A DNA stretch of 62,986 nucleotides, counting the filler, from Conidiobolus incongruus B7586 (lineage: Eukaryota): NCBI GenBank assembly GCA_000697335.1. It is 19 parts of 19 records of this genome, joined end to end, with 100 filler letters (N's around TTAATTAATTAA, not from the genome) between each part and the next. Parts side by side here need not be neighbours in the genome. Positions count along the whole stretch, not along the records: positions 49,341 to 51,455 come from JNEM01000434.1; positions 51,556 to 54,263 come from JNEM01000435.1; positions 54,364 to 56,338 come from JNEM01000436.1; positions 56,439 to 57,993 come from JNEM01000437.1; positions 58,094 to 59,543 come from JNEM01000438.1; positions 59,644 to 61,014 come from JNEM01000439.1; positions 61,115 to 62,986 come from JNEM01000440.1; 12 more parts are not named here. One strand, written 5' to 3'. The position numbers and the translations under genes were made by a program. Shown here piece after piece: positions 9,298 through 62,986 of this stretch. Under the pieces are notes generated by a model. The model was not told the DNA's origin, did no database searches, and saw only the letters and a program-made list of their open reading frames with translations. Each line of letters starts with the position of its first letter. Positions within the stretch are counted from its first letter, which is position 1.

Positions 9298-10059
9298 TTA
9301 TTCCTTTTCCTCTGATCCTTCCAGCCAATACGCCACTCTCTCAGTACTCGAGTCGCACTCTGGATCCATGAGATCACATTCTTCAGGTTCGCAATTATCT
9401 GTATTAGGATCACATGGTTCATCACAGTCTTCCTCATCAGGATCGCATTCCTCGGGATCATCATCGTCCGGCTCACAAATTGGAGGAGTGGTGGGCTGAA
9501 TGATAATCACAGTTGTTGCAGTGGATGTTATTGTAGTTACACTCGTTGCTGTTACCGGTACTTGTACTGGAGTTGTGATAGTTTGGGTCACTGTTTCTTT
9601 GGGTCCAATCACTGTTGAAATTACTATCGTTGTGATCTGCGTGCTTTGAACAGTGGTGATGGTGGCCGTGGATACCTGCGTTGTTGTGGTCGTGATTGTC
9701 GTAGGGGTCGGCGGGGGGTTTGAGGGCTTAGGCTTGGGTTTGGGCTTGGGCTTTTTCACTGGCTTAGGCTTTTTGGGCTTTTTAGGCTTTTTAGGCTTTT
9801 TTGGTTTTTTAGCCTTTGGCTTTTTCTTTTTTAAAATAGTCACTCTTTCCAGGGGCTTGTTGGTGCACTGATAATTCACATGCCATTGATTTTCAGAAAG
9901 AGAGTATTGAATCACATTTGCATCACCATCCTCTTGAGTGATTTCATTTAATTCAATAGAACTTGATTCCAAATTCAAGTGATCATATCTTTTAGTGTAA
10001 TTAATAGGCTCAATAACAGAAGATGACAATAATAAAAATATGAAATTAATTAAATACAT
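9298..10059 (-). CDS. Secreted low-complexity protein (Lys/Pro repeat, Thr-rich stalk, acidic Cys-rich tail), 253 aa
   Basis: Hydrophobic N-terminus MYLINFIFLLLSSS, a (KKP)n/(KP)n tract, a Thr/Val-rich segment, then CEPDDDDPEECDPDEEDCDEPCDPNTDNCEPEECDLMDPEC. GC-rich relative to the flanks. Confidence 0.8.
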   Translation of the reverse strand: MYLINFIFLLLSSSVIEPINYTKRYDHLNLESSSIELNEITQEDGDANVIQYSLSENQWHVNYQCTNKPLERVTILKKKKPKAKKPKKPKKPKKPKKPKPVKKPKPKPKPKPSNPPPTPTTITTTTTQVSTATITTVQSTQITTIVISTVIGPKETVTQTITTPVQVPVTATSVTTITSTATTVIIIQPTTPPICEPDDDDPEECDPDEEDCDEPCDPNTDNCEPEECDLMDPECDSSTERVAYWLEGSEEKE

Positions 10060-36649: not shown

Positions 36650-37768
36650 CTATTTAAGAGCTTCCGCATGAGATAATCTAGAGATAATATCTTGAACCGA
36701 TTCCAATAAATTTTCATCAATACTGAGTTTGAGGTTCGTCAAGCTGGGACAATTGATAATTAAATGTTCAATAAATGGTGCAATACAATCATCGCTAATA
36801 CGAATATCTAAATGGGTAATATTAGAAAGCATGGGGATTTTAAATTCGTTAATATCATCATCAAAATAATAACAATTTAAAATTGTCAAATACTTCAAAT
36901 TCTTGCAACGTCCCCAAAGTTTTATCAATTCTTCATTCAATAAACTACCACTAATTGATAATTGTTGAATTTGTAAATTATTGGTCAACAACTCTTGTAT
37001 TGTAGAACTTAAATAATCATTTTCAGTTTTGCATTTCACATATTCCAAATAAGGTAGATTTTGGGTAGAAATTTGGAAATTATCATAATGGTCAGATAAG
37101 TAGTCGAGTAAACGGTCGCAAGAGATATAATCAGGCTTAGCTTCGTAGCTGTGCATACGTTTCCAAAGTTTCCATGACAAAGATTTCAAACTGTTGGGGA
37201 ACCGGAATGGTTTAGAATAGTCATTGGTAATAATCAATAAATTCTTAATTTTCAATTCTTCCAACTGATTTAAATTACCAATGAGATTTTGGAACAATTG
37301 AATATCAAATATCATCGAATCAATAGCTAAAGACTTTAAATTTGTAAAGATTTGGGGAATTGGAGATATTACAGATTTCGTGGTATATTCTTTGATTGTC
37401 ATATGTCTAACGTAGTCCTTGAAGGATTGTAGTTGTTGAATGTACGCTTGAATGTGATTAGGATCTTCTTTTTCTTCATCATCTTCATAATTATCTTCCT
37501 TCTCCTCCTTCTCCTCCTTATCCATTTCAACTTGTTTCTGTGGCAATTTTGATTTATCTAAATAATATTTAGTCCAATAAAAATAATTGATTAATTCAAT
37601 CTTCCTAAATAAATAAGGTTTGAGTTTTTGACATAATTTTTGATTTAGTAAACTCAATTCGTATAATTCTGTAGTTCGCAAATGGATAAGGATTTGAGGT
37701 AGAGTCAGTATAAAATCCCAATCAAGATTTTGGGTAATTCTGGTGGTGAAGTTGGAATTAGAATTCAT
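36650..37768 (-). CDS. F-box-like/RNI-type leucine-rich-repeat protein, 372 aa, possibly C-terminally truncated
   Basis: The N-terminal WDFILTLPQILIHL..ELYELSLLNQKL..KLKPYLF is F-box-like. LxxLxI units recur (NLKSLAI, QLEELKI, SLKSLSW, NLKYLTI, NITHLDI, CPSLTNLKL). Confidence 0.8.
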   Translation of the reverse strand: MNSNSNFTTRITQNLDWDFILTLPQILIHLRTTELYELSLLNQKLCQKLKPYLFRKIELINYFYWTKYYLDKSKLPQKQVEMDKEEKEEKEDNYEDDEEKEDPNHIQAYIQQLQSFKDYVRHMTIKEYTTKSVISPIPQIFTNLKSLAIDSMIFDIQLFQNLIGNLNQLEELKIKNLLIITNDYSKPFRFPNSLKSLSWKLWKRMHSYEAKPDYISCDRLLDYLSDHYDNFQISTQNLPYLEYVKCKTENDYLSSTIQELLTNNLQIQQLSISGSLLNEELIKLWGRCKNLKYLTILNCYYFDDDINEFKIPMLSNITHLDIRISDDCIAPFIEHLIINCPSLTNLKLSIDENLLESVQDIISRLSHAEALK

Positions 37769-38451
37769 TTGAAACTAATTAATTTTAATTGAGAGAATTT
37801 CAAGACCTTTTGTTAATCAATTTATATATTTATTTAAAAACAAGAAAATTATGGGAATTTGATTTTTGAAATGTTATTTATAATTTTAATTCAGACAATC
37901 CAAATAATTATCATTATTAGGAATTTCATTTAATTATAAATATTTTGAATTAAAAATTTAATTGTAAATTTTGATTAAATTATCTATATATATGTATATA
38001 CGTATGGTTTAATGATGATTATTAATTTCAACTGAAAAATCAAAAGAACAGAAATTCAATTAAAATTAGAAATTAGTAGAATACAAAAAAGGAACTTTAT
38101 TTTTTGAGAATTAATTATATATAACTAAATTTACGAATAAAATATATTGAATTTTATGAATTATTTGAAAAAAATGATTATTCGTTTTGATTTAATATGA
38201 AATAGAGTTGGTTAGATAATTAATTAATTAATAAAAAAATCGAGATAAATTGTCATATGAATAAGAATTAATTAATACTAAAATTCAATAAAAATCCACT
38301 CAAAGATTAAAATATTAACATATGGCTTGAAACAGAGGAACTTATATTATTTAATTTTTTTATCTGGTAATAAGTATTGAATTAACTTTGATAAGTCTAT
38401 CTAGAGAAATCACTATACCAGACTTAGATTATATATTTATTCAAATTCATA

Positions 38452-39655: not shown

Positions 39656-41393
39656 TTTGAATTAAACAATTAATAATATATTAATTTTAAGATAAGATAT
39701 TTCCAAGAGAATTTTACATAATTTAAGAGTATTTATATAGAATTTTTAAAGTTTCACAAAATTTAAAAAAAAACTCCAATAATTCTAAGAGGGTTTGATT
39801 TAATTTTCAAATGAAAATTTTTGTAAGTGAACTTTAGGAATAGTATTTTTAGTATGACTTTATAACATGACATTTTCGATGAACTGATATAGATATTTGA
39901 CGTGTTATATTGTCGTAGTATTTAATTTTTGAAAATTGGAAATTTCTCATAAAATAAAAATTTCTTGAGTTTAAAAATCTAAATCACATGTTAATTTATC
40001 AATTAATTAACGATTCCTAAATTGTTAATTAAATGATAAATTGTTCAGAAAGGTAATATAGGCGAAAAATTTGAAATTATACTATAAGGTGGTAATGATT
40101 GTGGTGTCTACGAATACAATAACAATATCACAATACAATGTTAAATTTCCACAATTAAATAAAAAATTCCAAGGTTTTCACTCATATTGGTATTTAATAT
40201 TTTTTTGATTACTAACTATATAAAAAATTTTTAAATGTTGAAGATCAAATTTGAGTTTTCCGATTTCATCCGTTATGAAATCACCACAGTTTTAAAATCA
40301 AAAATCAAATCATAATATGCATTAAAATTTAAATAAATTAAAATTATATTTTGATATTGTATATAGTTTATTATAATTATTTAATTACTAAAATGTTTAA
40401 ATATAAAATCAATATTATCAATATCAGTAAAATTTTTTTAATTTATTTTTATTAAAATATAATTTGAATTTATATATTTTTATTTATTATAGATTATTAA
40501 AAATATAAAAAATATATNNNNNNNNNNNNNNNNNNNNNNNNNNNNNNNNNNNNNNNNNNNNTTAATTAATTAANNNNNNNNNNNNNNNNNNNNNNNNNNN
40601 NNNNNNNNNNNNNNNNNAATAACTAAAAAAAATAATATATCTAAAATATTTCTTTTAATTATAACTTATATAATTATAATTGTTTTAGGTAATTAAAAAA
40701 TTAATTTATAAAAAAATTTCTATAGGAAAATTTAATTATTTTATAAATATTAAAACTTTCTTAAAAATATAGCAAAAAGTTCTTAAAAATAAAAGACAAT
40801 ATTAATTTTATATTATATATTTATTTTTATAAATTATATTTTAAAATATTTATTTTGTTTAATCATAAAAAATTCATATTATTTAAATTACTAAATAATA
40901 TTAATAAAGATTCTACTAATTTTATTGTTTCTTGGTATAATATTCAAAATTCAAAACTAATAGTAATAACTAAGATATTAATTAAGATTTAATTTATATC
41001 AATAATATATTCAATATGATTCAAATATAAAGTCATTTATATTGTATTGGTATAAAAAAAGGAAAGAATATATTGATATTTAAAATAAATCGTTGATAAT
41101 TGATTTTTTGAACATTATCTCAATTGATATTCTAATGTTAACTACGTATTAAGTATATATAGTGACTATATTCTCAATATGTAATTAATAAATTAAATAC
41201 ATTTTAATAAAAATTACATGGATAAGATATTTTAAATTTTGAACTAAAATAATTTGAACTCAATTTAATGAAAATAGAAATAAAGTTGAATGTGTAGTTT
41301 GAATAAAAAGCGAAATGAGGATATATTCAAAAGTAAAAATTCTGATATTTAGTAATGAATTGATTAATCTACAAACCCAATGAGTATAAAATA

Positions 41394-42350
41394 TTAGATC
41401 AAGGAGACTCTCGTTCTGACTAGACCTCCTCGATAGTTTTTTAGTGGTAAAGGCTTTCTTTGAAGTCTTCTAAATGCTTCATGAATATCGGCAGGTTGTA
41501 ATGGAGTTTGGTCAGTTTTTGGAGCAGAAAAGAGAGAAGAAACTTTGCTAGTGTCGCCAGCTTCGGATGAAATAGTAGGATCATCGGGGCTTCCAGGTGG
41601 CATTAGTAGTTCTCTTTCAGCCTTGACTTTAAGTGCACATTCCGTCAAATTGCTAACCATTTCAAATGTCAAAAATCCCAAGATATCAATGATATCATCG
41701 TTAGGCTTGAGATCTGTATAGGTTGACATATGACACCAGTCTTTGAATTTTTTTGCTTTTCTGAATGTAAATGAAGCTTGTCTACATTCGGAATAGTGGA
41801 CATACTCATCTTTGCTCATAACTTTGGTTACATTATCTGCGTGACGAAGTCTTAACATTGAGTCTCGATAAGCTTCAATGGAATCTTCATCTTCATCTTC
41901 GGAATCTGATGGAATGACGTCCAGGAAACTATTAGCCAGTTCCCAAGATAACTTAATTTTCATTTTCTTGACCTTTTGAGGTTTATCCAAATTATCGTCT
42001 AGCAAGTCTTCACCAGCTCCACCAACTGGATCCGAGCTTTCTTTCGCATTTTTTCTAATATCTTTCCAGCTCAAATAGACTCTCAAACGATTTACTTTAG
42101 CCCTATCGTGTCGAATTAAAAAGATAAGGTCTTCGGGAACAATGACCTTAGATCCTTTAGCAGCTAATTGTTTATCTATTAGGATTAAAATTTCAATAAC
42201 TTGACTCCTTACAATATCCTCGATAAGCATAGTGGTTTCTAGTAAGGGATCCGAGACTTCACCAAACACATATAACATTTGTTGAATTTCGGATGTGTAT
42301 TTATAATTAGATGTAGTTTCAGAATTGGTAATAGGATTTATATCTTCCAT
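41394..42350 (-). CDS. SPT3: SAGA complex subunit Spt3, 318 aa
   Basis: KYTSEIQQMLYVFGE, EDLIFLIRHDRAKVNRL..YLSWKD.RK, MSKDEYVHYSECRQASFTFRK.KKF, DDIIDILGFLTFEMV and PLQP.DIHEAFRRLQ. Confidence 0.97.
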   Translation of the reverse strand: MEDINPITNSETTSNYKYTSEIQQMLYVFGEVSDPLLETTMLIEDIVRSQVIEILILIDKQLAAKGSKVIVPEDLIFLIRHDRAKVNRLRVYLSWKDIRKNAKESSDPVGGAGEDLLDDNLDKPQKVKKMKIKLSWELANSFLDVIPSDSEDEDEDSIEAYRDSMLRLRHADNVTKVMSKDEYVHYSECRQASFTFRKAKKFKDWCHMSTYTDLKPNDDIIDILGFLTFEMVSNLTECALKVKAERELLMPPGSPDDPTISSEAGDTSKVSSLFSAPKTDQTPLQPADIHEAFRRLQRKPLPLKNYRGGLVRTRVSLI

Positions 42351-43870
42351 CTCTTATACCAAATTTTATTATATAAAAATAGACCAGCTGAATTAGCTTT
42401 TGTTGATATTATCACAAGATATTGTTAGTTATTTTATTCTGACATTGAGACATGGTATTTGGATTCATTTAAAAAAATATAACCTTAATTCTGTTATGGG
42501 ATTGATTAAAGTAAATTCAAAATAGAATCAATTGTTAGTACATGAAAAAATTTTTCCTTTTTTCAAGTCTTAAAAATAATTTGTTGATAGGCCAATGAAC
42601 TATAGATAGTATTTATGGTTTCAATATCCAATATATATTATAAATTTTTACTTAATATTTACCGATATATAAATAAACTTGAAATAATACTCTTTTTAAT
42701 CTGAATTATGAAAATTATTAGCCAGTAATATATTTCAAAATTATTATTTTGATTTCAGATTAATCTTTTATATAATGGTAAAAAATATTTTACAATTATT
42801 ATATTCTCAAAAAAATTAATCAACATAATTATATGAAATTGATTCTTATTACCTAAAATATATTTATTCATTCAGCCAATATTTAATTTAAATTATTTAT
42901 TTTGTAATCAACAATTAAGCATTTTGATTTTTAATCTTGACTATTATATTTAAATACTATATATTGCAGCCTGTTAATATTACTCAAATCTAAGTACTAT
43001 TATTAAAACCTATTTTAATTTATTTTTGCTATTATGTCTCTAAAATTAGAGTGTCTAAATCAGTTAATAAGCCCTTTTGTAATTATCTTATCATTAAAGT
43101 TATATATTGATTATAACTGAATACCTTGAATTAAAATAAATATCCATAATTAATATATTTAAATTCATATATAAAATGAGTAAAATTGATTATATATGAT
43201 TTAAAGAAGCATAAGACAATATTATTAACTTAAAATAATTGATATCCACTAGGATATAAAAAACATAAATTTATTCTAAAACTTGAATAAAAAAAATAAA
43301 TTCTTTATAAATATATAAAATAATAAAATATATTATATATATAATTAGGATAAAAGTAAGATAATTAATATTAAAATTAATTTTATATATCAAAATATTT
43401 TATCATTAGTATATTATAGTATATATCTAGAATAGTAAATTATTATAAAGATTATTGATAATATAAAAATTAAAGTTTAATAAAAATATTAATTTAGAAA
43501 TTAAATAATATNNNNNNNNNNNNNNNNNNNNNNNNNNNNNNNNNNNNNNNNNNNNTTAATTAATTAANNNNNNNNNNNNNNNNNNNNNNNNNNNNNNNNN
43601 NNNNNNNNNNNTGTATTTAATAAAAAAATATTAGTTTTATATTATATATTATTTTTTTAATTTAGGTATTAATAATATTATTAATAATAATTATAAAATA
43701 CTAATATATTATATTAAATAAATTATATAGTTTTTAAAATAATTCACCAAAACTTCTAATATTAGATTAAAAGTTGATTTTAAAAAAATATTATAATTTG
43801 AATATTTTTTATAATTTTATTATTTATCCTATCATTTTATTCCAATCTTTTGTTTGGATATCAAAATAAT

Positions 43871-43939
43871 AAAATAAACAGATAAAAACTATATAAGTCA
43901 TATATATTATGACTTATATAGTTTTTATCTGTTTATTTT
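43871..43939. repeat. Perfect 32-bp inverted repeat with a 5-nt loop
   Basis: AAAATAAACAGATAAAAACTATATAAGTCATA (43871-43902), loop TATAT, then its exact reverse complement (43908-43939). Confidence 0.95.
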
Positions 43940-44938: not shown

Positions 44939-47364
44939 TTTTTTCACTATAATTTCTTGTAAATAGCTTATGGATCTAGTCTCCTAATTCCATTAAAATT
45001 TTAATTTTGGGAATTTTATTCAATCTTTATGGGATTATTTGACAAATTCTTAAAATAGACACCTGAATTATTAAATTCCTTTTCTCCATTCATCTTTATT
45101 AAAATTATTTAATTTTAATATATCATTTTCAACATATAAAATATAATTTCAAACCTTTAAATACATTACATTATTATTCACTAATTGAACTTATTATTGA
45201 TATTCTTATTTGGGGATACTGCATTTTTCAAACGGAATATTGAGTCAGTAAATATTAACAAAATTAAATTTAATACCTGATGCAAAATCCAGCATTTACC
45301 AATGTTGAAGTTTTTTTTTCAATAATTTAGAATAGATTTAACAAACTTTATAATTTATTAATTTATTGACAATTATTAATATATATTAATTCAAATCATA
45401 TAATTATTCACATCAATGGTATATTAATATTGATATTTCAAAATCACAATAAGATCATGAAATATATTTTCAATATATATTTTATATTATTCATATATTC
45501 AATAATGTTGAGGTAATACCTTGGGTTATAATTAAATCATTTTTTATTAATTAATAAATTAAGTTATTGAATACTAATTATTTTATATCAATTATATTTA
45601 GCGTGTCTAATATCCTGATATTTTAAAAATAAATTAATATACTGTATAAAAATCATCATATTAATGACAAATATAGGAATGTTTGAGACGAGCTATTTTT
45701 AATAATCATAAATTGAAAAAGTTGATTTTTTTTAATTTTTCAACAAAATATAAGTTTGTATTATTACAAAATGTGGGGTAGTTATTAATAAAATATTCGA
45801 ATATTATTAATATTGAATATATTCTATCAAATGCTATATAATCTTGTTAGAATGAATGAGCAAATTGGCCAAATAACAATTCAAATTGAAAATTTATTTT
45901 TAAAATATATATAGTAAATAATATATATTAAAAAAATTTATAATTTCTGGATTTCTTAAATATTGCTTTAAATTTTAAGTAATAGCAGTTTTAGAATCAA
46001 ATATTTTATTTAATTTTCAATTCCAAGGTAACAAAAAATATAATATTTTATAATATTAATTGCTTTCATTTATTTTTCATACCTTTTGCTATAATTTTGA
46101 CAAATCTTTAATACTTAAATAATAGCTTGTTTTACTAATAACTAATATTTAATATACTATTAATTAATTTTGTTTGCCAAAATTACTATTATATAAGAAT
46201 ATTTTTTAATTATTTAAACTAATTATAATAATACAAACCATAGTCCAATGATTATAATAGATCTAATAGTATTTTTATTTTTTCTTAGAAATATTTTTTA
46301 GTTTTAATTTTATATAGTTTATATATAATATAGAATAATAGATATAATTAATATATACTAAGATTAATACTAGAAATNNNNNNNNNNNNNNNNNNNNNNN
46401 NNNNNNNNNNNNNNNNNNNNNTTAATTAATTAANNNNNNNNNNNNNNNNNNNNNNNNNNNNNNNNNNNNNNNNNNNNTTAAAAGATAAAAATAATATACT
46501 TATATTAGCTTTTTTATCCTTTATAATAATTTAATTATATTTTTTTTAACTAAAAGTTCATTTATTATATATTTTTTAATTTTATAGCAAAATTATTATA
46601 TAAACATATACATGATTTAAACCTTTATAACTCTAAAGAACCAATAATTCTACTTTAAAAAATTTTCAAATATAGCCATATTAAATAAAAATATTCAAGT
46701 TTAAAATGATTTGAATTTGTTATAAATTGAATTAACATAAAACCATTAAAGTTTATATTATTTATATATAATTAAATCATTTTAATATAATATCATTCTT
46801 AGATATTGACTCTGTCATATTTATAGTTTAGGCATTTATTTATTGCAAAGTAATTCCTGTAAAATAAATAATATAAAAGGTAATTCAAACATACAAATTT
46901 TAAATTTATAATATATTTATATAGTTTTATATAAAAGATTTGTTAATAAAGAAATTAATATATAATAAAAACTTAATATAATTACATTTAATAAAAAACA
47001 TCAATAAAAATTTATATAATACTTGAATATTTAATTAAAAGAATTTCAAAATTAATAAGTAAAAACGATTCTGAATATTTTGAATTGTCCATTTAATTAT
47101 TCAAAATCAGAAAGTTTAATATATCATTGAAACATAATTTTCTGTAATTGTAAAAATGTATTAAATTATATTGGATTTATCAAAAATGTTTAATCATGTA
47201 ATAATAAGGATATATTTGATATTATCAATCTGATTATTTTATAATAAATTAATGTCACCTTTTTGCTATTATTCAATATTTTATTGATAAAATTTATAAT
47301 ATGAATTATGGATTCAAAAAATTTCGGTTATATTAAATATATTTTTAATTTTCAAAAATGCTAA

Positions 47365-47783: not shown

Positions 47784-50193
47784 CCAAATATTTAAAAGAT
47801 TAGATATATAACATATCACGTAACAGTATTAAAAATTATATATATTTATATCATATTATAATAACCAATAAAATTATAACTACACAAAAACTATTTCTTA
47901 TCACTTATATAAACAATAAATTTTTAATAATTTTCCTTCATAAATACCATCATGATTATAATCAATAATATATATAACTTGGTAATTCTTTTTAATACTT
48001 ATTCCAATAAATACCAGAAGTATTATTTTTAACATTGATTTTGGAAACATATATATCATCATTTTTGATGATTATTTCATAATAGATATAGTATCCTGAA
48101 ATACATAAGAAATTATTAATATATGGATAATATCTGATAATAGCAAATTTAAAATTCGTATTAGAACTTAAATTAAGGTTTAATAATAAAAATTATATCG
48201 TTGTTTGGAATTATATATCGTTAAAGATTAAATATCCTAAATGGTTAAAATTAAATATATAGCCTATATTACCATTTTTTGAAGTTTATAAAAATTTCTC
48301 ATCAAAAGCCAATATTAGATAAAAACGTATTAAAATCAATTTAATAATTAAATTTTAAAATCCTCAAAATTATATATATGATTATATAAATCACACTTAA
48401 TAATAATTACTTGGTTTTACACTAGGTTATTTCAAAATATTAATTATTTAGAGTTAAAATTTATATAAAATATTCAAGTTTGATTAGTTTAAGATATATT
48501 AATTACATAATATTCATCAAATTTTGAAGTTTATAAAATAATTGTTTATAATATAGTAATTCAATTTCCTTGAATAATTATTATTTATTTGATCGTTAAA
48601 GATTATAGTTAAGTTTGAATTAAATATCTATAAAATAATCTTTGAATTAATTTTAATTAATTTAAAACAACTTTTATATCTTATATAATAGATTTTATCA
48701 TTAAAACCCATATAAATTTTGAATATATTATAAGATATTGAGAAATTGATTTCAAAGATCAAAAGGATATGACTAATATTATCAATAAAGAAATTAACTC
48801 TAAAATAAATAATAAAGATAGATAATTATTTATTTCAATTAAATTCATTATATATGATAAATTATTTAGGTATCTAAATTAATTCATTTTTTAAAAAAAG
48901 AATATATTATATAAAATATATGTTTTCTAGATATTTAACTATAAATAACAGATGAATAAATTTAATTAAACGTTCTAGATAATGTGAATATTATTTTTAT
49001 TATAATATTTAATAATTCACAGTATAATTTTATATATTATTATTTTATTTTGATTTCTAATATAATTTCTGATATTTATAAATAGTTTATAGACTTATTT
49101 TATTCAATAATAAAATCAAATATTTTAAAAACATATTATAAAAATTTTAAGAAAATATAAAATTACTCAAAATCACAGAATTTTAAATTATTGCTTAATC
49201 AAATAAACAGCATTAATTATAGTATTATATTATATAAAATNNNNNNNNNNNNNNNNNNNNNNNNNNNNNNNNNNNNNNNNNNNNTTAATTAATTAANNNN
49301 NNNNNNNNNNNNNNNNNNNNNNNNNNNNNNNNNNNNNNNNTTATATCTTTATAACTAAATTAATTATATAAATAATATTGAATTATTTAATAAACTAGTT
49401 TTTTTTTAATTTTTACTATTTCTTATCTTTTTCATTATTTTTGAGATTAAAACTATATCCTATTAATATTATAATATATTAACATTATATAATATAAATC
49501 TTAATATATTAATGACTTATCTTAATTTGATGTTTAATTAAACTTTATTTATATTTACATATTATAGTTTTATTATAGTATTATATTTTATGTCATATTA
49601 CTCTTTTATTATAGTTTTCTTTTATACTATATTGGTATTTTATTATTATGTTTATATAATAACAATAATAAAATTATTAAAAATCTATTAAAATTAATAA
49701 TTATTTATATTTAATCTATTTATTACTATTTTAAATTTTATTTATAACTTAATTTATCTAAATTTAATACTATACATTATAATAACATTAAAAAAAGATA
49801 CCCTTATATTATTTTAATAATAATAATAGTTTTATTACTAAGTGAATTTAAGATTTTAATTTATAAAAATTTTTTATCTTTTAAGGAACTAATATTAAAT
49901 AACTTTTGGTTAAGAAAAAAATAATTTAAAAAGCTAAAATCTAACAAACTAACTATTTCAGTATTATTAACATATTAAATCACTTATTTAAGGTTTTTAA
50001 AGATAAATTAACTACTTATAATAGTTTTAAAAACCTCTACAAGCTTAAAAATTATTCTTAAAAATATAAAGAATTATCTTGATATAATCTTTGATAAAGA
50101 TTTAAAAAATATCTTTAAAGTTAATCACTTCTTTTTTTGAAAAATCTATTTACATTTAGTAGTTTATTTATTATAAGTTTAATCTTAAAAAAT

Positions 50194-51270
50194 CTTTAAG
50201 GGGATAAATTAATATAATAATATAAATCTTTAAATAGTTCAAAAAAGCTTTTAAAAAAATATTATTTAAAAAATTAAATTTAATTAATAACAGAAAAGCT
50301 TTCTTAACTTAAATAAAAAACTTCTATAAAGTAATTAATTGAGAAGTTTAATCAGATATATTTAAATATACTAAATATTATTAAAGAAGAATAAATCTAT
50401 AAGCTATTATAATATTTTAATCCTTAAATAAAACTTTAGTTAATTATCAGGAAATATCTTAATAATATAATCTTTTCTAACATTTATGATATAATAATGT
50501 TGATTGATAATATCTTTTACTTTATAAGTAAATTTTTTTATCTTAAGAGTTAATTTTTTAAAACTTATTTTAACTTATTTAAATCTTAAATAATAAATAT
50601 TTCTATTTTAAAGCTTTATATGAAAACTTTTAGTAATATAGTTAAAGTTTATTTAAAAGTATATAAAAGTTACTATTATTGTTAAAAGACTTAAGTTAAC
50701 TATAAAGCTGATAAATATTCCCTTAAGAAGTAATATTTATCTAATTTTCAATAATTTTAATTTATTAATCATAAATCAAATTTAAATAATATTAATATAA
50801 CTTTAAAATTACCTCTTTTAAAATTAATTAGTACAATTTAATTTAATCCACAAAAATTCTAATAAACTAATGATTCTACAAATTAAATTATATATACTAA
50901 AGATATTTAACTAATTAAACTACTAGAAACTAAAAATATTATAATAACTAATTTATCTTATAATTCTTTAACTTTAATTATCACCATATTGTTTATTTTA
51001 ACTAGATATTTTATAAACACACTTGTTAATATTTTAATTAACTTTAATTATTTTAATTATATTATCTTTTCTTTTATTGTTTTAAAACTATTTTTACCTA
51101 TTTAAGAAAATATCTTAATAATCAAATATATTAATAATTTAATAAAACAAATATTTAATACTATATTTAAATATCTAACACTATTGTTTAACTAGTCCCA
51201 ATATATTAAATTTATAGTTAGGAACATTGGTTATAATTTTATACTAGGTTAAAATTAGTTTAAATATTAT
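50194..51270 (+). mobile_element. Hypermutated Ty3/Gypsy-type gag-protease relic
   Basis: One frame with no frameshift. Reverting T>C and A>G recovers the gag core L(Q)GD...(WW)...L.(Q)KTS(V)...EKF, (MD)IS, the knuckle (GC)..C(R)KT(Q)V(DH)KADK(CP) at ~50668-50721, protease LI(DSGCS) at 51034-51054 and Y(D)FILG.N(W) at ~51232-51258. Confidence 0.7.
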
Positions 51271-51555
51271 ATTTTTTTATTTATAAGTGTTATTTTAAAA
51301 AGTCACAAATCTATTTCTTTTATATTCTAAAAAAATTAATAGAATTAATTTTGAAAAAATTTATATTTTCTTATTATAAAATTACTAAATAGTTTACCTA
51401 ATACTAATTTTATAATTATATCAAATAACTTTATTATTATAAATTAAAATTAATANNNNNNNNNNNNNNNNNNNNNNNNNNNNNNNNNNNNNNNNNNNNT
51501 TAATTAATTAANNNNNNNNNNNNNNNNNNNNNNNNNNNNNNNNNNNNNNNNNNNN

Positions 51556-52291
51556 TAATAATAAATAATTATTTTATAATTATTGAGTTAATTTTACCTT
51601 TAAATATAATAATAGGTTAATTATTATTTAGGGACATATATTATCAATTTGTATAAATTATCCTTATAAGGTAAATAAGGGATTTAATACTAAAATATAC
51701 CTAAGTATCTTAAATAATATATCACCAAACTATTGAATAGTTATGGTTAAATAAATTTAATACTATTTTCTATTAAGTCAGTATTTTTATTAAAAAATAA
51801 CGTCTATTACTAAATTACTTAAATAATAAGATAATAGTTATAATGTATTTTTTTTAATTTTTTAACCTTAGTTTAATTAAATTATTTATAATTAATAAAA
51901 GAATATTAGAATTATTTTTATAATTAATTGTATAAATTAATTTAAGAAATATAATTAAGAAATATAAAATAAAATTAGATTTTATCAGTGTAAAAAGTTA
52001 ATTAACTTCATACCTGATAAAAAATAAAAATTAGAAAAATTAAAGATAGAAACACTAAGTTTTAATTTTTTTATTAACAAAACTAATTGATTATAATTTA
52101 TCTTAAATAAAATTTCAAGGTTGATATTTTATCTAATTAATAACAAAATAAAATCATTTAATAATTCAGAATATAAATTAAAATATATAATGTTAATTAT
52201 TTATTCTAAGTTAACTATATTAAGTATTAATTAAGTTATTAATATAAATATAAATGATTTAGATTTTATAATTTATTCTAGTAGGATAATA
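51556..52291 (+). mobile_element. Tc1-like (DD34E) DNA transposon, copy A: 3' half with right end, hypermutated
   Basis: AAA TAT AAT AAT AGG TTA ATT ATT ATT TAG GGA corresponds to KHGGGSI.IWG. The C-terminal K(GG)NTKF* ends at 52065. The right terminal repeat ends at 52291 and is followed by TA. Confidence 0.8.
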
Positions 52292-52293
52292 TA

Positions 52294-53850
52294 CACTAAC
52301 CTACAAAAATAAGTTATAAAATCAAAAATATATATATTTTAATTAATAATTAGAACAATTTTATATATCAAATTACCTGAAACTATAATATATAATTAAA
52401 ATATATTATTTGATAATAGATAAATTTAATTAGATATATTTAGTAAATTATTAGCAAAAAAATTAACCTCTAATATTTAATCAAGATGAGTTATAAATTT
52501 ATAGGTTTTTAAGATAAAGGGATATATATAACAAATTATAACCATATTTTTTTTCTTAGGTATTATTTTATATAATATTTTACAAATATATTAAATTCTT
52601 TTTATTAAAATTATTATACTTATATCCCTCTGTAATAAATTCATTTATATATCAATCAACTTTATAAAAAAAATAAATCAACCTATAATATTATTAAAAT
52701 TACTAGTATTAGTTTGTTTATTATAATTAAAGTTATTAAAAATAATAATAAAAATATATTTAAATTTAAACTTATATATATTAAGACAATAAATAGATTA
52801 GATAAAAAAAATATCTATAGGTTAGTTAATATAAGTAAATATAATATTATTGTAGAAATATAATAAAAACAATAAAATTATATAAGAATATTAGTTAATA
52901 CTAATATTATAATATATGTATTATATTAGTATGAATATTATTAATATTTTTAAAAAAACACCTTTTAATAAAGAAATCCAATTATAAAACTAGGTAGTAG
53001 TTTAAATATCATCATTAATATTATACTAAAACTAATTAGAATAATGATATTTAATTTAATAAAAAAAATAAATTTTAGTAAATTTAATAAAAAAGTTAAA
53101 TACTTCAAAAAAGATACAAAGCTACTATATAATAATTATGTTAATTTTACCCAAAAGTATAATAGTAGGTTAATTATTATTTAGGGATATATATTATCTT
53201 TAGTTATAGGATATCTTTGTAAAGTTAATAGGGGAATTAATATTAAGATATATCAAATTATTTTAAATAATAAATTCAAAAAATATTAAATATTATGGGT
53301 TAAACATATCCAATATTATTTTGTAACAAGATAATACCTTTTGTTATATTATAGCTTTTATTACCAATTAACTTAAAAATAATAAGATAAAATTATAAAG
53401 TAGCTTTTTTAATCTGTTAACTTTAAATTAATTAAATATCCTTAAGATTAGTTAAAAAAAGTTATTAAAGCTTTCCCTCTAATAAGAAATTTAAATTAGT
53501 TTAGGAATATATTTAAGAAGTATAAAATAAGATTAACCCTTCTTAATATAAAAGATTAATTGATTCTATACCCTATAAACTTAAAGAAGTTACAAAAATT
53601 AAAGATAAATATACTAACTTTTAATTTTTTTTATCATCAAAAACCTACAAATTTAAAACTTATCTTTAATAGAGTTTAATGGTTTATATTTTAACCAATT
53701 AACAACTTAATATCATTATTTAATGATATATATTAATAAATATAATAGATTTTAATTATTTAATTCAGGTTTATTTTATTAAATATTAATTAAATTATAA
53801 GTAAAGAAATAAGTATTTTTGATTTTATAACTTATTTTTATAAGTTAGTC
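52294..53850 (+). mobile_element. Tc1-like (DD34E) DNA transposon, copy B: full length 1557 bp, hypermutated
   Basis: TA + CACTAACCTACAAAAATAAGTTATAAAATC at the left end matches the inverted GATTTTATAACTTATTTTTATAAGTTAGTC at the right end. Inner inverted motifs lie at ~52481-52518 and ~53630-53668. The transposase relic has TQK(HGGGS)I.I(W)G and QDN and ends at 53624. Confidence 0.88.
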
Positions 53851-53939
53851 AATATATATTTTAAATATATTTATATATGATTTTAAAATATTTAAATGTT
53901 TTTTAATATTTATTTAATATATTTAATTATAATAGATTA

Positions 53940-54263
53940 ACTGTAATAGTAATTTTAATAGTTTTATAAATTTAATTAATATAAAAGTTAATTTTTTTAG
54001 AAAATGATTATAGTATTTAAATATTAATTTTAAAATATTTTTTTAACAATTTTATAGTATCTATAATATATGAGAAGATAAAAGAGATATGTATAAGTTT
54101 TGTTATTTATATCCCTTTAAGTTATAAACCCACAAATTTATAACTCACCTTGTTTAAATTTTTAGTTTGAATATATTAGCTAATTATCAATAAAATATAA
54201 TTAATTATAATTAATTAATATAAGTAAAATATATATTTTATTTTAATTTTATTTAATTAAAAA
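53940..54263 (-). mobile_element. Tc1-like element, inverted partial copy (left subterminal region and transposase start)
   Basis: The reverse complement (AAGGTGAGTTATAAATTTGTGGGTTTATAACTTAAAGGGATATAAATAACAAAACTTATAC) aligns with the left region of copy D at ~58170-58230. Confidence 0.7.
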
Positions 54264-54409
54264 NNNNNNNNNNNNNNNNNNNNNNNNNNNNNNNNNNNNN
54301 NNNNNNNTTAATTAATTAANNNNNNNNNNNNNNNNNNNNNNNNNNNNNNNNNNNNNNNNNNNNAAATGATAATTCATTTATAAGTTTGAAAATATTAATA
54401 AATTAGCTT

Positions 54410-55971
54410 ATAATATTATATAAAAAATAATTATTAAATATAATTATATTGAAATTAATAACTAAAAAAATTGTATATATTAGATTATTTAAAACTATAT
54501 TATATAATTAAGGTATATTATTTGATAAATAAATATATTTAGATATATTTAGTAAACTGTTAGCAAGGATATTAACCCTTAATATTTAATTAAAATAAGT
54601 TATAAATTTGCAAGTTTTTAAGATAAGGGGATATATTTAATAATATATAACCATATCTTTTTTCTCACTTTGTTATTATTTTATATAATATTTTACAAAT
54701 ATATTAAGTTTTTTTTATTAGTTTTATTATACTTAAATCCCTCTCTAAAAAAATCTATTTGTGTATCAATCAACTATATAAAAAAAGTAAATTAACTTAT
54801 GATATTATTAGAATTACTAGTGTTAGCTAATTTACTATAGTTAGGGTTATTAAGAATAATATTAAAGAAACATTTAAACTAAAACTTAAGTGTGTTAAAA
54901 TTATAAATAAATATGATAAAAAATATATTTATAGATTAGTTAGTATAAGTAAATATAATACTACTATAGAAATTTAATAAAAATTATAAAATTATACAAA
55001 AATATTAATTAATACTAATATTATTATATATATTTTATGTTAGAATAGATACTATTTATAATTTAAAAAAACACCCCTAATTAAAAAAGTCTTATTATAA
55101 AGCTAGGTAAGAGTTTAAATATCATTATTAAAGTTAAATTAAAACTAACTAGAATAAAGTTATTTAGTTTAATGAAACAAGGATGTATTTTAATAAATTT
55201 AATAAATAAGCTAAATGTTTCAAAAAAGATAAAGAATTATTTTATAACTATCATGTTATTATAACTTAAAAATATAATAATAGGTTAATTATAATTTAGG
55301 GATGTATGTTATCTTTAAGTGTAAAGTATCTTTATAAAGTTGATAAAGGAATTAATACAAAAATATATTAAAATATTCTAAACAATAAATTAAAAAAAAT
55401 TATTAAATGATATAAATTAAAAAATCAAATATTATTTTCTGACAAGATAATACACTTTGTTATACTATAAATTCTACTATTAAATAGCTTAAAAATAACA
55501 AAATAACTATTATAAAATAGCCCCCTCAATCTCTTAATTTTAACCTAATTAAATATCTTTAGGATATATTAAAAAAATCAATTAAAGCTTTCCTTTAGCA
55601 AGAAATTTAAATTAATTTTAAGAGTATATTTAAGAAGCTTAGAATAATATTAGTTTTGTTTAATATAAGAAGCTAGTTAACTCTATACCCCACAAACTTA
55701 AAGAAATTAAAAAAGCAAAAGATAGATATATTAGATATTATTTTTTCTATTAATATTAAAACCTACAAATTTATAACTTATTTTAAATATACTTTTAGTT
55801 TTAATATATTAATTAATAATTAATTGAATTTAACTTTATATATTATATTATAAATAAAGAATATATATTAATTATATAGTTTAATATAAGTTTATTTAAA
55901 TTATAATTAATTTAGATATTAATAGAAATATATATATTTTTAATTTTATAACTTATTTTTGTAAGTTAGTG
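54410..55971 (+). mobile_element. Tc1-like (DD34E) DNA transposon, copy C: near full length, hypermutated
   Basis: KVI(WSD)ET at ~55156-55179, K(HGGGS)I(M)I(W)GCM, QDN with D at 55446, and (W)PPQS(PDL)N(P)I(E) with the E position at 55551, exactly 34 codons between D and E. C-terminal S(M)PH.L.E..KAK(GG). The right end ...TGTAAGTTAGTG is followed by TA. The left boundary is approximate. Confidence 0.9.
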
Positions 55972-58093
55972 TATATAAGTAGGTTTTCCAAAAAAATATC
56001 AAGTTTAAAGATTTTTTTTAAATTTTTATTAAGAATTAAATAAAGATAATTCTTTATATTTTTAAGATAATTTTTAGATTTATAGAGATTTTTAAAATTA
56101 TCATAAATAATCAATTTATCCTTAATGATATAAAAAAGGTGATTTAATATATTAGCAATAATAAAGTTATTTTCTTATGAAATTTAAACTTTTTGTGTTA
56201 TATTTTTTTAACCAAAAGTTATATATTATAAGCTTATTGAAAAGCAATTTGTTTTTCAAAATTAAAGTTTTAAATTTATTTAATATTAGTATAGAAATTA
56301 AAAAATAGGAAAATTTTTAATTTTTGATCTTTCAAACANNNNNNNNNNNNNNNNNNNNNNNNNNNNNNNNNNNNNNNNNNNNTTAATTAATTAANNNNNN
56401 NNNNNNNNNNNNNNNNNNNNNNNNNNNNNNNNNNNNNNAATTTTAATATATTTATTCAAGGTCAATAAATTAAATATATTACTAAAATAAATATTAAATA
56501 AAAGAAATATATCTGGTGTATTTTATACTTTTTAAATTACAAATTTTGTATATTTATCGATTTAATTTAAAAATTTTGAAAAATACGGTTAAATTAAAAA
56601 TCAAATTGAATTATATAATTTCAAATATTGGTTTAATATTTATATAATGTAATATAATATTATTTATTTTAAATAGTGATAATCAAAGTTTCATTATTTC
56701 ATTGTTATTTTATATTTTATTTTTAATAAATCTTATCATAAATGTAATTATTGTAAAAATAAACTATATAATAATAATTTATTTTATTTATGATTAAATA
56801 TTGTATCTAAATATCATTATAAATACATAACTGATCATTACTTGGAGATAGCAATTATGATAAAAGTTAAATGTTATACATACAGGATATGCCTTGACAT
56901 GAGGATAGGTAATAATAAATCAATTTCTCATAAATCAAAAATATCCACAATAACCATATGATGAAATATTAATAAAATTTAGTATCAGTATCTTTGTTTC
57001 CCCTTAACTAAATCAAAAATTTGTCAAAAAAAAAATCAAAAATATTAGGGTGATTAGAAAAATTTTAATCAAATTAATTTATATAGCAAAATCCTTAATT
57101 ATGGTTATATATACTAAATAATACATGGATTATGGCATACCTTCTATTGGTTTGTAGTATTTAAACACTGAGATATTAATTAAATATGTCTATTAATGGT
57201 TTACTGTATAAAGGAATCAAAAATAATAATAAAATCTAATGACATGATTGAAGTAGTTTTATTATAAATAAACTTGTAACTTTTATTTTTTCGAAAACAA
57301 CAAATAATTAAAGTTGATTTTGTCAAATAATTTTAAATTGATTGAATATCTTTTGAATGATTAAAAAAAAACTCTTAATAACATTGTTATACTTATTAAA
57401 TTTTACCAAGGCAATATATACTTTTATAATTTGTAAACATAATTTATTATATTTTTCTATCTAACTTGAAATCTAAAGAAGAAATTTTCAGAAAAAATTT
57501 GAAAATAATGTAGTATATATATAAATTAGATTTTTACAATTTTTGATTTAAATAATTCAAAAATAGACTGGTAAAATATTAATACATTTAATATTAAAAT
57601 TTATCAGTTTAAAAATATATTGAGTTATTCTTCATATTTATTCGAAAATTCAAAACATGTTTCAAATTAAATATAACCTTCTAATTTAAATTAACAATTA
57701 TCAATTTAAAATATTTATAAAATAATTCAATAATTAATCTAATTTGAATATTCTGTTCTTAAAATATTGATTATACTATTAATAAATTTTGATCTATATT
57801 TGGATTAGTATAAAAATTAAAATGTTTATATAAGTCAACATTAATTCATATGATATTTGAATTAATTTTTCGAATTTACTATTTAATTAAAATAATTAAT
57901 ATTAATTTAAAATTATATTTCATGGATAAAAAAATTATAAAAAAATTTTGAAAATGATTATAATTAAAGATATAGTATTTTTTTTATTTATTTNNNNNNN
58001 NNNNNNNNNNNNNNNNNNNNNNNNNNNNNNNNNNNNNTTAATTAATTAANNNNNNNNNNNNNNNNNNNNNNNNNNNNNNNNNNNNNNNNNNNN

Positions 58094-59533
58094 TAGATAA
58101 TTATAACTAACTATATTTGATAATATTTATTAACTACTGGTTAATATATTAAAACTTAAAATTTAACTAAAATGAGTCATAAATTTATAGATTTATATGT
58201 TAAAAGGGTATAAATAACAAAACTTATATATATTTTTTTTGTTATATTATATATAATATAAAACTATTAAGCTAATATTTTAAAATTAATGTTATAATGC
58301 TTAAATCATTTTTAAAAAAATTCATTTATATATTATTCAACTTCATAATAAAAATAAATTAACTTATGAGATTGTTAGAATTACTAATATAAACCAATCT
58401 ACTATAATTAAGGTTATTAATAAAAATTCTAGAAAACACTTAAACCAAAACTTAAGTATATTAAGATTAAAAATAAATATGATAAAAAGTATATTTATAA
58501 ATTAATTAATATAAGTATAATATTATTATAAAAATATTATAAAAATTATAAGACTATATAAGAATATTAGTTAATATTGATATTATTATATATGTTTTAT
58601 ATTAGAATAGAATTTATTTATATCTTAAGAAAAAACACCTTTAATTAAAGAAATCTTATTATAAAGCTAAATCAGGGTTTAAATATCAACACTAAAGTTA
58701 AACCAAAATTAACTAGGATAAGGTTATTTAATTTGAAAAATAAGGATATATTTTAATAAATCTAATAAGGAAGCTAGATATTTCAAAAAAGATAAAAAAA
58801 CCATTTTATGAACATTATGTTATTATAACCCAAAAATATAATAATAGGTCAAAAATAATTTAGGGATATATATTATCTTTAGGTATAAAGTATTTTTTAG
58901 AGGTAATAGGGAAATTAATGCTAAAATATACTAAAATATTCTAAATAAAAAATTGAAAAGAACTTTTAAGTAATATAGGTTAAATAAATTAAATATTATT
59001 TTCCAGCAAAATAATACTTATTGTCATATTATAAATTCTATTATTAAATGGCTTAAATAACAAAATAACTATTATAAAATAACCCCCTCAATCTTTTAAT
59101 CTTAAATTAATTAAATATCTTTAAAATCAATTAAAAAAATTAATTAAAGCTTTCCCCTTAGTAAAATATTTAAATCAACTTTGGGAGTATATTTAAGAAG
59201 CTTAGAATAGTATTATTTTTATTTAATATAAGAAATTAGTTGACTCTATACCCTACAAACTTAAAGAGATTAGAAAAGCAAAAGATAGATATACTAGATA
59301 TTAATTTTTTATCTATATTCAAACCCACAAATTTATAACTTATTTTAGGTATACTTTTAATTTTAATTTATCAATTAATAATGAATTAAATTTAACTATA
59401 TATATTATATTATAAATTATAATTATTTATTAATTACTTAGTTTAATACAAGTTTATTTAAATTAGAAAAGATTAAGATATTAATAGAAATATTTATATT
59501 TTTAATTTTATGACTTATTTATATAAGGTAATA
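58094..59533 (+). mobile_element. Tc1-like (DD34E) DNA transposon, copy D: left end cut by contig edge, hypermutated
   Basis: IFQQ(D)N..CH....IKWL, (W)PPQS(PD)L.(P)I(EH)L(W), QLWE.I(Q)EA(W) and LVDS(M)P..LKE.RKAK(GG)YTRY*. The right terminal repeat 59504-59533 is followed by TA. Confidence 0.9.
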
Positions 59534-59764
59534 TATATACTAGNNNNNNNNNNNNNNNNNNNNNNNNNNNNNNNNNNNNNNNNNNNNTTAATTAATTAAN
59601 NNNNNNNNNNNNNNNNNNNNNNNNNNNNNNNNNNNNNNNNNNNAATTAAATTAATATATTAATTAATATCGAATATATATACTTATATTTCATCTTTCAC
59701 AATTTAATAATTAAAAATAATTGATTAAATTTTTATTTCTTTTTGATTTAAGATAAAATTTTAC

Positions 59765-59804
<40 letters not shown>

Positions 59805-61308
59805 AAACGGATAAATTGTAATTTAAAACAAGAATTTAATGAAAACAAAATAAAATTAATTATCAGATTATTTTTGAATAAAATTATTATTATTATTATT
59901 TTGATTTGAAAATTAATAAAATAATTAAATATACATATAATTTAGTAGTAATATAATATTAATTAATAATATATAATAAAACAATTTATCACAAATATTC
60001 AAAAAAAATTTTTTCAAAATTTCTCATTATTTCATATGATAAAACAATTATCAATGTGGAAATATTTTTTTTCAGTTTTTGTCCTAGTAATACAACTCTT
60101 GTAAAACGTTACTAATTATATTTAATATTTTGCTTTATTTTGTTATCTGATAAAGTTATAGATTAATTCTTATTTAAATTTATTTTACTCGTGTTAGAAT
60201 TTTTTTGTTTTGAAAACTAGGGATAATAATAATTAATGGTGAAAATATTATATCTTATTAAACTTTGTTTATATATATATATATATATATTATTTTAATT
60301 CATGAAAGTGATAAAATTTTTAATGATGAATATTTAAATTAAAATATTTTATCAATTAACTTATTATCTCTAAACTTTTTGAATTTTTGAAAATTTAATA
60401 TATTAGTGTAATTACAATTTTTCCTTCATTAAAGTGTAATATTAATACCAGTATACTTTCAAAATATTACTATTAAAAATCGCTTAATATATATTGTTAT
60501 AATTCTATATATCTTGTTATATTTATTATCAAAAGTTAATTTTAGAATAATATAAAAATTTTAATGAATTAATAATATCAAAATTATTTAATTTAATAAA
60601 ATATGATAATATTAAATTAAACTATAAAATCTATTAGATTGTATAATATTTTAAATTTTACAAAAACTTATTAATTTGTTATTATGTATATTATATCATA
60701 ATTACCATTTGTCAAAATTTGACAATGTTCGAATTAGTTAAAATTGTTATAAAAAATGAAATAATTAATTGTGAAAATATGTAGACAATTATATTCAACA
60801 ATATTTTAGAATTATATGAACTAAACCATTTTCTAAAAGGTATTGTATAATTACAAATATTTCATTATTGATTAACTATCTATTAAATTTTATCTGTTCA
60901 GTAACAAAATTGAGAGTAATATATTCTAGATTAATTTTCATATTTTATTTAAAATAAATTAATATATAAATAATATAACTTAAGTATAATTTAAATATTT
61001 TTATTAAATTTAAANNNNNNNNNNNNNNNNNNNNNNNNNNNNNNNNNNNNNNNNNNNNTTAATTAATTAANNNNNNNNNNNNNNNNNNNNNNNNNNNNNN
61101 NNNNNNNNNNNNNNTCAATTTTAAGCCAAATATTTATTATTATTAAAATAAATTATTATTATTATTATTTTATAAAAAATTTTATATTTTAGTTAAAATT
61201 TAAGAATAATTAATATAATATTATATTAATTATTATGAGTGCAAAAATTAAATAATGGCATAATTTTAAGATTGAAATTGAACAAATAAATTAATAAATA
61301 ATATAGAA

Positions 61309-62347
61309 TTAATAGCCTCTTTAATTATTAATAACTCTTTTCTATACCTTTAGTAAGCTTCTAATACCTAAAAAATAGTTCTTTTTATTAAGGAATGAAA
61401 TTTAATAATTCACAAACTAATTTAATTTGTTTGCAGGAATTTTTTTCACTATAAGCTATTTTTTTAATTATCTAAAACAATTATAATCATATAGGTTATA
61501 GTCAAGTGAATATATTGGAAATGGTAACTCCCTTTAATTTTTTTATATAAAAAATCTTTTATAGCTTTAACTTTATATATTTTGTAATTATTATGCAAAA
61601 TAATAGGTATCCTCAATTTATATTAAAAACCCCAATTAGAAATTATTTTATTTAAAAAAATAATATATAATTTACTATTAATTGATTTATCTTAAGATAT
61701 TAAATAAAAAAACCATATATCATTATAATCTATTATAATAATTAACATTCATTTATATTTAAGATACCTATTTATTAGAATTTATAAAGGGGATTAATTT
61801 AGCTTAACTGAATATCTTGTTTTATTTTTAGGCAAAGGATTATATAGAAGAATCTAAGATTTATCAATTGCAAGTATTTGTTTTAAAAACCTTTATTTTT
61901 GGTTATATCTTAATAAGTTTAGTATAGCTATAGTTACTTTAGCTTTCTTTTAGGTTTTTATTGAATTATAAGGTATTGATCTTCTATTTTTATTAATTAA
62001 TCCAAGTTTAAACTTAAGTAAATATAACATGCTTATATAATTAATATTAAATTATTTTAATAGCTCTCTAGCAGAAATAAAAAGATATTCCTTAATATTT
62101 TTTGTACTTTACTAGTAAAAAAAAGAATAAAAATAGAAATTAGTCTTCTAGATTTTAGTAAATTTTAAATAATATCCCTTCTTGCTTTAAAATTACAAAT
62201 CTAGTGATATATGGTAGTTTTAGATAAAACATTATCTTCATAAGCTGTTTGCAAGTTTTGAATGATTTTAGAGGGTTTATGGTTAAGTTTTAAAGATACA
62301 AAAATAAATACCTTTTGATAATCATAATTTGGTTTAAATAAGATTAT
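61309..62347 (-). mobile_element. mariner (DD34D, Mos1-like) transposase relic, hypermutated
   Basis: HTH segment LQTAY(G)DN(A)LSKTT(V)YH(W)ICNFKA(G)RD..(D)L(PR)S(G)R(P); IP(H) linker; ILAID(E)S(W) with D at 61865-61863; ILH(D)N at 61592; YS(P)DYN(PC)DY with D at 61488; ending GIRSL(P)..(W)KRVI(D)N.(G)GY*. About 346 codons with two 1-nt frameshifts. Confidence 0.88.
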
Positions 62348-62986
62348 ATTTAAATATAAATTTTAAAATCAAAATATTTTAATATAAAAAATAATTAAAA
62401 TTGAATAAATATATATAGTTTAAAAGTATTTATTTTCCTATATATTATATATATCATTTTTCATAATATATAATATTTTTTAATAGATTATATCTATTAT
62501 TAGATAGTATTCTGTTTTTATTATGTTTTTCTATAAAGAAATATAATTTATATTAAGGAAAAAATAATGATTTCATTACAGAATTTTAACAAGTTTTATA
62601 ATTCTTTATTATAATAGAAATATTTATAAAATATTTTATATAGGTATTTAAGATTAAAATTAAATTATATTTTTTTATCTTACTAGTAATAAAAAAAAAC
62701 AAATATTTTTTTGTTTAATCAAGGTTTAAAAAAGATAAAATAACAATTATTAAATAAAATTTATATAGGTATAGTTAAAAACCAAGGTTTTTATAACAAA
62801 TGATCTTAAATATTATATTTTATAACTTTTTTTATAAATATTTTAAAAACAAACTAATGTTTAAAATTAGGCAAAAATTACCGAATATTTAAATGTTTTT
62901 AAATAATTATTTTATTGATTAAAAAATATTGATTTTTTATAGATTATTATAATATATATTTTTTATATTTAGTTTTAAAAAATATA

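Follow-up and report, generated by a model that had tools for sequence, protein, structure and literature searches.

Does a fungus outside the Dikarya mutate its own repeats, and if so, by which kind of process? The question is raised by a window of 62,986 nucleotides from Conidiobolus incongruus B7586, the whole stretch of DNA analysed here, in which a sequence-only reading had recognized decayed transposons (positions 50194-62347) with C>T changes resembling repeat-induced point mutation (RIP). This window is not a single locus. It is a concatenation of 19 contigs (1.4-5.1 kb each), separated by 18 artificial linkers of 100 nt (N44-TTAATTAATTAA-N44, with stops in all frames; the first at 3848-3947, the last at 61015-61114), and adjacency across linkers carries no meaning. 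The region of the finding spans seven contigs, a point not noted in the sequence-only reading: five contain transposon relics (49341-51455, 51556-54263, 54364-56338, 58094-59543 and 61115-62986), and two AT-rich contigs (56439-57993 and 59644-61014) show no relic signature. In the repeat copies, C>T mutation follows the ranking CpG >= CpA > CpT >> CpC on both strands, and the mutations are independent in each copy.

Direction and sequence context of the changes

The direction of change was determined for the Tc1 family, of which the window contains four copies with a mutual divergence of 17-31%. Copy A (51556-52290, + strand) is the 3' half of an element and the most decayed; copy B (52294-53850, +) starts after a TA and retains both terminal inverted repeats of ~50 bp; copy C (54407-55971, +) ends in a 3' inverted repeat followed by TA and has an approximate 5' end; copy D (58094-59543, +) lacks its 5' end, since the contig begins within the element. 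In a search of 1.84 billion proteins, a profile built from in-frame Tc1 pieces matches four (best E=2e-11), and from the kin of these four proteins 20 close intact relatives were taken as the reference profile (338 columns). Intact homologues thereby replace a GC-maximised consensus, which understates CpA and CpG because sites that are mutated in every copy are invisible to it. The copies were compared with the intact relatives at fixed codon positions of the 124 of 338 columns that are conserved to at least 85%.

At these conserved positions, counted as copy x site cells that are mutually dependent, C has become T in 258 of 396 cells, whereas T has become C in 9 of 375. Other changes are few: C has become A in 14 cells and G in 2, and T has become A in 8. 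The claim that most conserved codons depart from the family motif by C>T or G>A holds, and the codons quoted for it are found at 55518-55562 (WPPQSPDLNPIEHLW) and at about 55270-55287 (KHGGGS). Conserved tryptophan codons (33 cells) now read TAG in 15 cases, TAA in 11, TGG in 2 and TGA in none. By context, 69 of 80 CpA cells and 50 of 109 CpC cells are mutated; the raw CpC count is elevated because CpC becomes CpT after the second C is lost.

A context-dependent likelihood model with windows of five bases was fitted on a star phylogeny to 435 observations from 125 columns, under two codon priors. The fitted number of C>T changes per site reaches the upper bound of 6 for CpG (profile lower limit ~3), and is 2.2 for CpA, 1.0 for CpT and 0.12 for CpC; T>C amounts to 0.03-0.04 and transversions to at most 0.05. 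A bootstrap grid gives 1.9-2.8 for CpA, 0.75-1.2 for CpT and 0.05-0.3 for CpC, and copies B, C and D fitted singly show the identical rank order of contexts. Models with tied rates fit worse, with twice the log-likelihood difference (2dLL) being 175 for CA=CT=CC, 41 for CT=CC and 7.4 for CG=CA; since the windows overlap, these are composite-likelihood tests and anti-conservative, and the excess of CpG over CpA is the weakest contrast. The CpC rate is 3-4 times the T>C rate, as would be expected from the general AT bias of the genome. The factors for the 5' base are 0.90 for A, 1.30 for C, 0.91 for G and 0.89 for T (2dLL 7.7, 3 degrees of freedom), and a deaminase of the TpC type was rejected, as the fit shows no preference for a 5' T.

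In simulations the fit retrieves flat and CpG-only truths. Compared with the observed composition (GC 0.16, CA 0.57, CC 2.29, CG 0, CT 1.37), only the fitted rates come close, although their CA value of 0.42 is somewhat low. Three other models miss the data: context-free AT drift yields observed/expected (o/e) ratios near 1 for all CpN, CpG-only decay gives a different dinucleotide pattern, and where CpA leads and CpG is weak, the simulated CpG o/e stays above 1.

Among copies B, C and D, 201 columns are polymorphic, and the ancestral base is kept at different sites in different copies (patterns B.D 44,.CD 42, BC. 41), as the sequence-only reading had stated. Its further statement that the copies differ mostly at CpA/TpG does not agree with the counts: the 3' base of the variable site is T in 103 columns; in the others it is A (51), C (39), G (4) or unclear (4). 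With CpA and CpG close to saturation, most sites at which the copies still differ are CpT. An excess of transitions over transversions is present in the pairwise comparisons among B, C and D (ratio 1.7-3.3); it is absent or slight for copy A (1.15-1.43) and for mariner copies (0.5-1.3).

Restriction to repeats

The relics can be compared with other DNA of the window at equal GC content. In 9694 nt of relics (GC 14.0%) we find a single CpG, at 51801 in Tc1 copy A, a CpA o/e of 0.63 and a TpA/ApT ratio of 1.14. The remaining non-coding DNA (25741 nt, GC 14.3%) contains 74 CpG and has a CpA o/e of 1.15 and a TpA/ApT ratio of 0.91; coding-like DNA has o/e values of 1.08 for CpA and 0.73 for CpG. 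Relative to GpC, CpG is depleted in the relics (1 CpG to 59 GpC; the remaining AT-rich DNA has 74 to 144, p=1.6e-8), and overall the dinucleotide patterns of relics and other non-coding DNA are opposite (p=2e-49). The earlier observation that 51801 is the only CpG of the relics is borne out, and unique DNA is spared. The other 11 CpGs between 50194 and 62347 lie in the two contigs without transposons, which serve as internal controls: 56439-57993 (GC 15%, CpA o/e 1.20, 5 CpG) and 59644-61014 (GC 13%, CpA o/e 1.18, 6 CpG). The composite RIP index is 0.45-0.64 on four relic contigs and 0.08 on the mariner contig. The data support a C>T process that is context-dependent and confined to repeats. 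It had been suggested that the same process is the source of the AT-rich intergenic DNA. We do not find this, and because relics and intergenic DNA have equal GC content and opposite dinucleotide patterns, the general AT richness is a separate, genome-wide bias.

Some further segments were noted with respect to composition. A gene resembling leucine-rich repeat/F-box genes (36650-37774, weak PF24758 match), a type that usually occurs in multiple copies, shows no departure from normal in CpG and CpA when scanned in windows of 500 nt. The window contains no young duplicate of a host gene. Three segments near contig ends (3451-3750, 28501-28800 and 43201-43500) are CpA-poor and CpT-rich and match none of the three relic families; they are possibly relics of further repeat families.

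Identity and arrangement of the relics

The sequence-only reading named three transposon families, and two of them are confirmed. For Tc1, the evidence consists of the transposase profile, the ~50-bp inverted repeats and the flanking TA; the transposase relic of copy C (54729-55738) aligns to 335 of the 338 profile columns with 3 frameshifts. The mariner relic (61115-62520, - strand; 0 CpG, CpA o/e 0.72) is Mos1-like, with a PDB match to Mos1 over residues 109-263 (E=3e-5) and a weak HTH_48 match (E=0.085). Pfam searches of the relic reading frames give weak matches alone (DDE_3 E=0.061, besides HTH_48). The third relic (49341-51455, -; 0 CpG, CpA o/e 0.57) had been labelled Gypsy gag-pro. It is a repeat, since 49832-50191 has a second copy at 55979-56338 (47 transitions, 27 transversions), but its family is unverified, as no match was found in Pfam or PDB; a retropepsin-like motif near 49925-49975 is visible by eye only. 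Repeats were located with purine/pyrimidine seeds.

Tc1 copies A and B stand head to tail (51556-53850), and copy C abuts the fragment of the Gypsy-like family at 55979-56338 (+), which suggests nested transposon clusters. The intact Tc1 transposases of 338 amino acids (L001-L004, P0121-P0160) form a tight clade, almost only from metagenome contigs, and carry no information on their host; the sequences L001-L004 have a GC content of 46-57% with normal CpG and CpA. For mariner, none of 324 candidates from a protein search scored as an intact relative, so no direction could be assigned to the changes in mariner.

The host and the origin of the relics

The SPT3 gene (41394-42353, - strand) serves as host marker; the remaining gene contigs bear ordinary fungal genes. 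SPT3 is 90% identical to Conidiobolus coronatus, with the following matches at ~60% (best 120 of 1674). In a tree of 25 rows picked from the SPT3 matches, it is sister to C. coronatus (support 100/99), and the two group with Neoconidiobolus, Entomophthora and Massospora (support 87/92). Although this placement is based on one gene, it supports a non-Dikarya host of Conidiobolus type, as the sequence-only reading had supposed.

Whether the relics belong to this host has to be asked separately, as an ascomycete contaminant subject to ordinary RIP could be the source of the transposon-only contigs. No host gene is physically joined to the Tc1 and Gypsy-like contigs, no Tc1 or Gypsy-like pieces are found on the gene contigs (the highest scores are 96 and 95, with medians of ~60), and the intact Tc1 relatives do not point to a host. 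The mariner family provides the link. Beyond the relics listed earlier, four older mariner pieces are present near the ends of gene contigs, with alignment scores of 156-265 compared with at most 87.5 in other windows (184 scanned, median 60.5): 40640-40860 (+, score 188) on the SPT3 contig, 23234-23700 (-) on the malate synthase contig, 31656-32569 (+), where the signature is nearly eroded (CpA o/e 0.96, 0 CpG), and 45880-46377 (-) at a contig end. Together, these pieces contain no CpG in 2124 nt (p=0.011), and their CpA o/e of 0.84 (range 0.46-0.96) and CA/CT odds of 0.54 (p=2e-5) share the direction seen in the relics. Pieces on the SPT3 and malate synthase contigs, in which the signature is weaker, tie it to the host. 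The mariner signature appears to weaken with age toward background composition.

The sequencing reads bear on the same question. From one sample, the Tc1 contig attracts 24686 out of 1490999 contig records in a first run and 19207 out of 493904 in a second; from two other samples with the same species label it attracts 0 and 1. No RNA sample is listed for this contig. The summed depth is ~8,000-158,000 within the Tc1 element and 86-333 in those flanking bins where it is lowest, with a depth of 3-9 for single pieces in the pile; the family looks very abundant, though the depth sum is no copy number. At the differing places of the pile of run X1 there are 379 transitions and 67 transversions. 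The scarcity in the other samples would suit contamination; the abundance in the first sample, the relics' GC content of 13-16%, which is in line with that of the host, and the mariner family on four gene-bearing or host-type contigs speak against it. We regard a contaminating ascomycete as unlikely, and the hypermutation very probably belongs to the Conidiobolus-type host.

Possible mechanisms

The hypermutation resembles RIP in effect, being C>T, repeat-restricted and strongest outside CpC. The mechanism of RIP in the strict sense, namely homology-triggered bursts in a premeiotic phase, would exceed the evidence. Copies B, C and D have similar fractions of mutated sites, as do the two strands (copy x strand p 0.91), and in the 201 polymorphic columns no correlation between adjacent sites is seen (p 0.8, 0.6), a comparison with little power near saturation. 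The reading that we favour, with slightly better than an even chance, is mutation coupled to a methyltransferase of the DNMT1/DIM-2 class, either passive or enzyme-assisted. CpG being affected at least as strongly as CpA points to cytosine methylation, and a strand-symmetric hierarchy of the 3' base with CpG on top, confined to repeats, is the trace that would be expected of a methyltransferase acting on silenced repeats. Such an enzyme, different from RID, would mark silenced repeats in CG, CA and CT contexts; the marked cytosines would become thymines gradually, across many cell divisions, by spontaneous deamination or with the help of an enzyme, for which the mitotic, Dim2-dependent mutator of Zymoseptoria would be the parallel. 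As the process wanes, older pieces would drift back to the background composition of the genome. Passive deamination had been offered earlier as the alternative to RIP; its CpG-only form is rejected by simulation, and a form with methylation in all three contexts would fit.

Several points weigh against methyltransferase-coupled mutation. Both the methylation and the enzyme class are deduced from the mutation pattern itself, and the Pfam family PF00145 includes tRNA methylases too. The rates come from four copies of one family under a star phylogeny. With ~2 hits per CpA the test for bursts is weak, and many rounds of RIP would look alike. The CpA rate is ~70 times the rate of A/T transversions, which would be high for spontaneous deamination unless CpA methylation were nearly complete. 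The Dim2 mutator of Z. tritici spares CpG, which is eliminated here, and CpA/CpT signatures were described only in RID-bearing genomes (Amselem 2015, PMC4352252).

The main rival, conceivable but in our view less likely, is that Conidiobolus runs an RID-independent, homology-triggered analogue of RIP, in which homology would be sensed in the sexual (zygospore) phase and a non-RID enzyme would produce CpA/CpT bursts next to ordinary decay of methylated CpG. The order CpA > CpT >> CpC is that of RID-bearing ascomycetes, with Tuber combining CpG and CpA (PMC4352252); TGG has become TAG or TAA and never TGA in the 33 cells, and three unrelated repeat families are affected. In Neurospora, DIM-2 supports RIP on old repeats without RID (PMC11969663). 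The RIP index of Zoophthora radicans is 24.2% (PMC11105155), and among repeats of at least 1 kb in C. coronatus none has 95-100% identity and 555 have 80-95% (PMC12543289), a distribution that assembly collapse could also produce. Against this stand the finding, at low power, of no strand bias, clustering or uneven load among copies, the apparently very high copy number of Tc1, by which such a defence would be weak or late, and the distribution of RID, for which PMC5751038 reports no occurrence outside Dikarya. An APOBEC/AID-like cytidine deaminase acting on transposon DNA would account for very high C>T with nearly no other change, but the 3' base, and not a 5' T, determines which cytosines change, and the strands are equal, including in DNA transposons without a single-stranded cDNA stage; we consider it very unlikely. 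Plain neutral decay under a general AT-biased mutation is extremely unlikely: the GC content of ~14% in relics and intergenic DNA and the transition/transversion ratios near 1 of old mariner pairs would suit it, but at equal GC content the dinucleotide patterns are opposite, the context-free model is rejected, and the ratio of C>T to T>C is ~27 compared with an AT/GC ratio of ~6 in other non-coding DNA.

Other features of the window

Two open reading frames encode secreted-looking proteins without Pfam match: one at 9298-10083 (Lys/Pro- and Thr-rich, with Cys/Asp/Glu repeats at its end) and a short, Cys-rich one at 2714-3166. A near-perfect palindrome of ~60 nt lies in non-coding DNA at 43871-43939.

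Implications

The repeat-restricted C>T hypermutation is real and strong; it was anticipated in print for the fungal order, and apparently not shown at such a level. A strong, non-CpG C>T hypermutation of repeats, polarised and internally controlled, in a genome of Conidiobolus type makes it testable by what enzyme repeats are mutated in the absence of RID, and whether this mutation is mitotic or meiotic. Conidiobolus is culturable and forms zygospores. Where a genome is AT-rich, screens based on composition can overlook the signal. If the analogue of RIP were true, a CpA/CpT repeat-mutating defence would be older than Dikarya or invented twice, and kingdom-wide k-mer screens would fail to register it, owing to the AT richness of the entire genome.

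Comparison with known systems

Published views on RIP outside the ascomycetes conflict. A screen of 1,239 genomes describes RIP-like signatures as unique to ascomycetes and scores C. coronatus as 'no_rip' (PMC12543289), the CpA/CpT bias has been tied to RID (PMC4352252), RID is given as restricted to Dikarya (PMC5751038), and chytrids are listed without RIP (PMC6572847); further references are PMC11258239, PMC13297926 and PMC7862722. For the Entomophthorales, an index-based study suggests, with major caveats, that 'RIP may be active outside of Dikarya' (PMC11105155, Stajich 2024), so that the idea put forward in the sequence-only reading is not new. The candidates reported there for entomophthoralean fungi are not interpretable as RID homologues. 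A search of the supplements of PMC5751038 and PMC11105155, apart from figure panels and Zenodo tables, gave no methyltransferase counts for Conidiobolus. The literature search, in which subscription journals are thinly covered and broad queries are represented by their top matches, gave no report in which alignments show this kind of mutation in Conidiobolus. The index-based study and ours agree in the fungal order and in the RIP-like suggestion; its evidence is a composite dinucleotide index only, with Conidiobolus and Neoconidiobolus unmarked for RIP analysis in its supplement, whereas here the changes are polarised against intact transposases and accompanied by internal AT-rich controls.

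With RIP of Neurospora crassa and other Pezizomycotina, the pattern shares repeat-restricted C:G to T:A changes on both strands, the order CpA > CpT > CpC, stops that arise from TGG to TAG and from CAA to TAA, and a positive composite index. It differs in that CpG is affected at least as much as CpA, which is not canonical, in that no burst or strand signature is seen in a test of low power, and in the host, a zoopagomycete, a group in which RID is not reported. The Dim2-dependent mutator of Z. tritici likewise produces C>T at CpA in methylated repeats, in mitosis and without a sexual cycle; there, >98% of C>T changes fall at CA and CG is spared, whereas here CG is eliminated and CT substantially affected (PMC8016269). 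In transposable elements of basidiomycetes, CpG or TpCpG hypermutation is also an RID-independent C>T change with loss of CpG (PMC3318451), but shows no excess outside CpG, in contrast to the strong CpA and CpT effects and the lack of a 5'-T preference found here. Mixed signatures as in the present relics are known from transposable elements of Tuber melanosporum (CpG plus CpA) and of Botrytis, Sclerotinia and Magnaporthe (CpA plus CpT); these are ascomycetes with RID/Masc1 (PMC4352252), whereas the fungus studied here is not an ascomycete and combines all three contexts.

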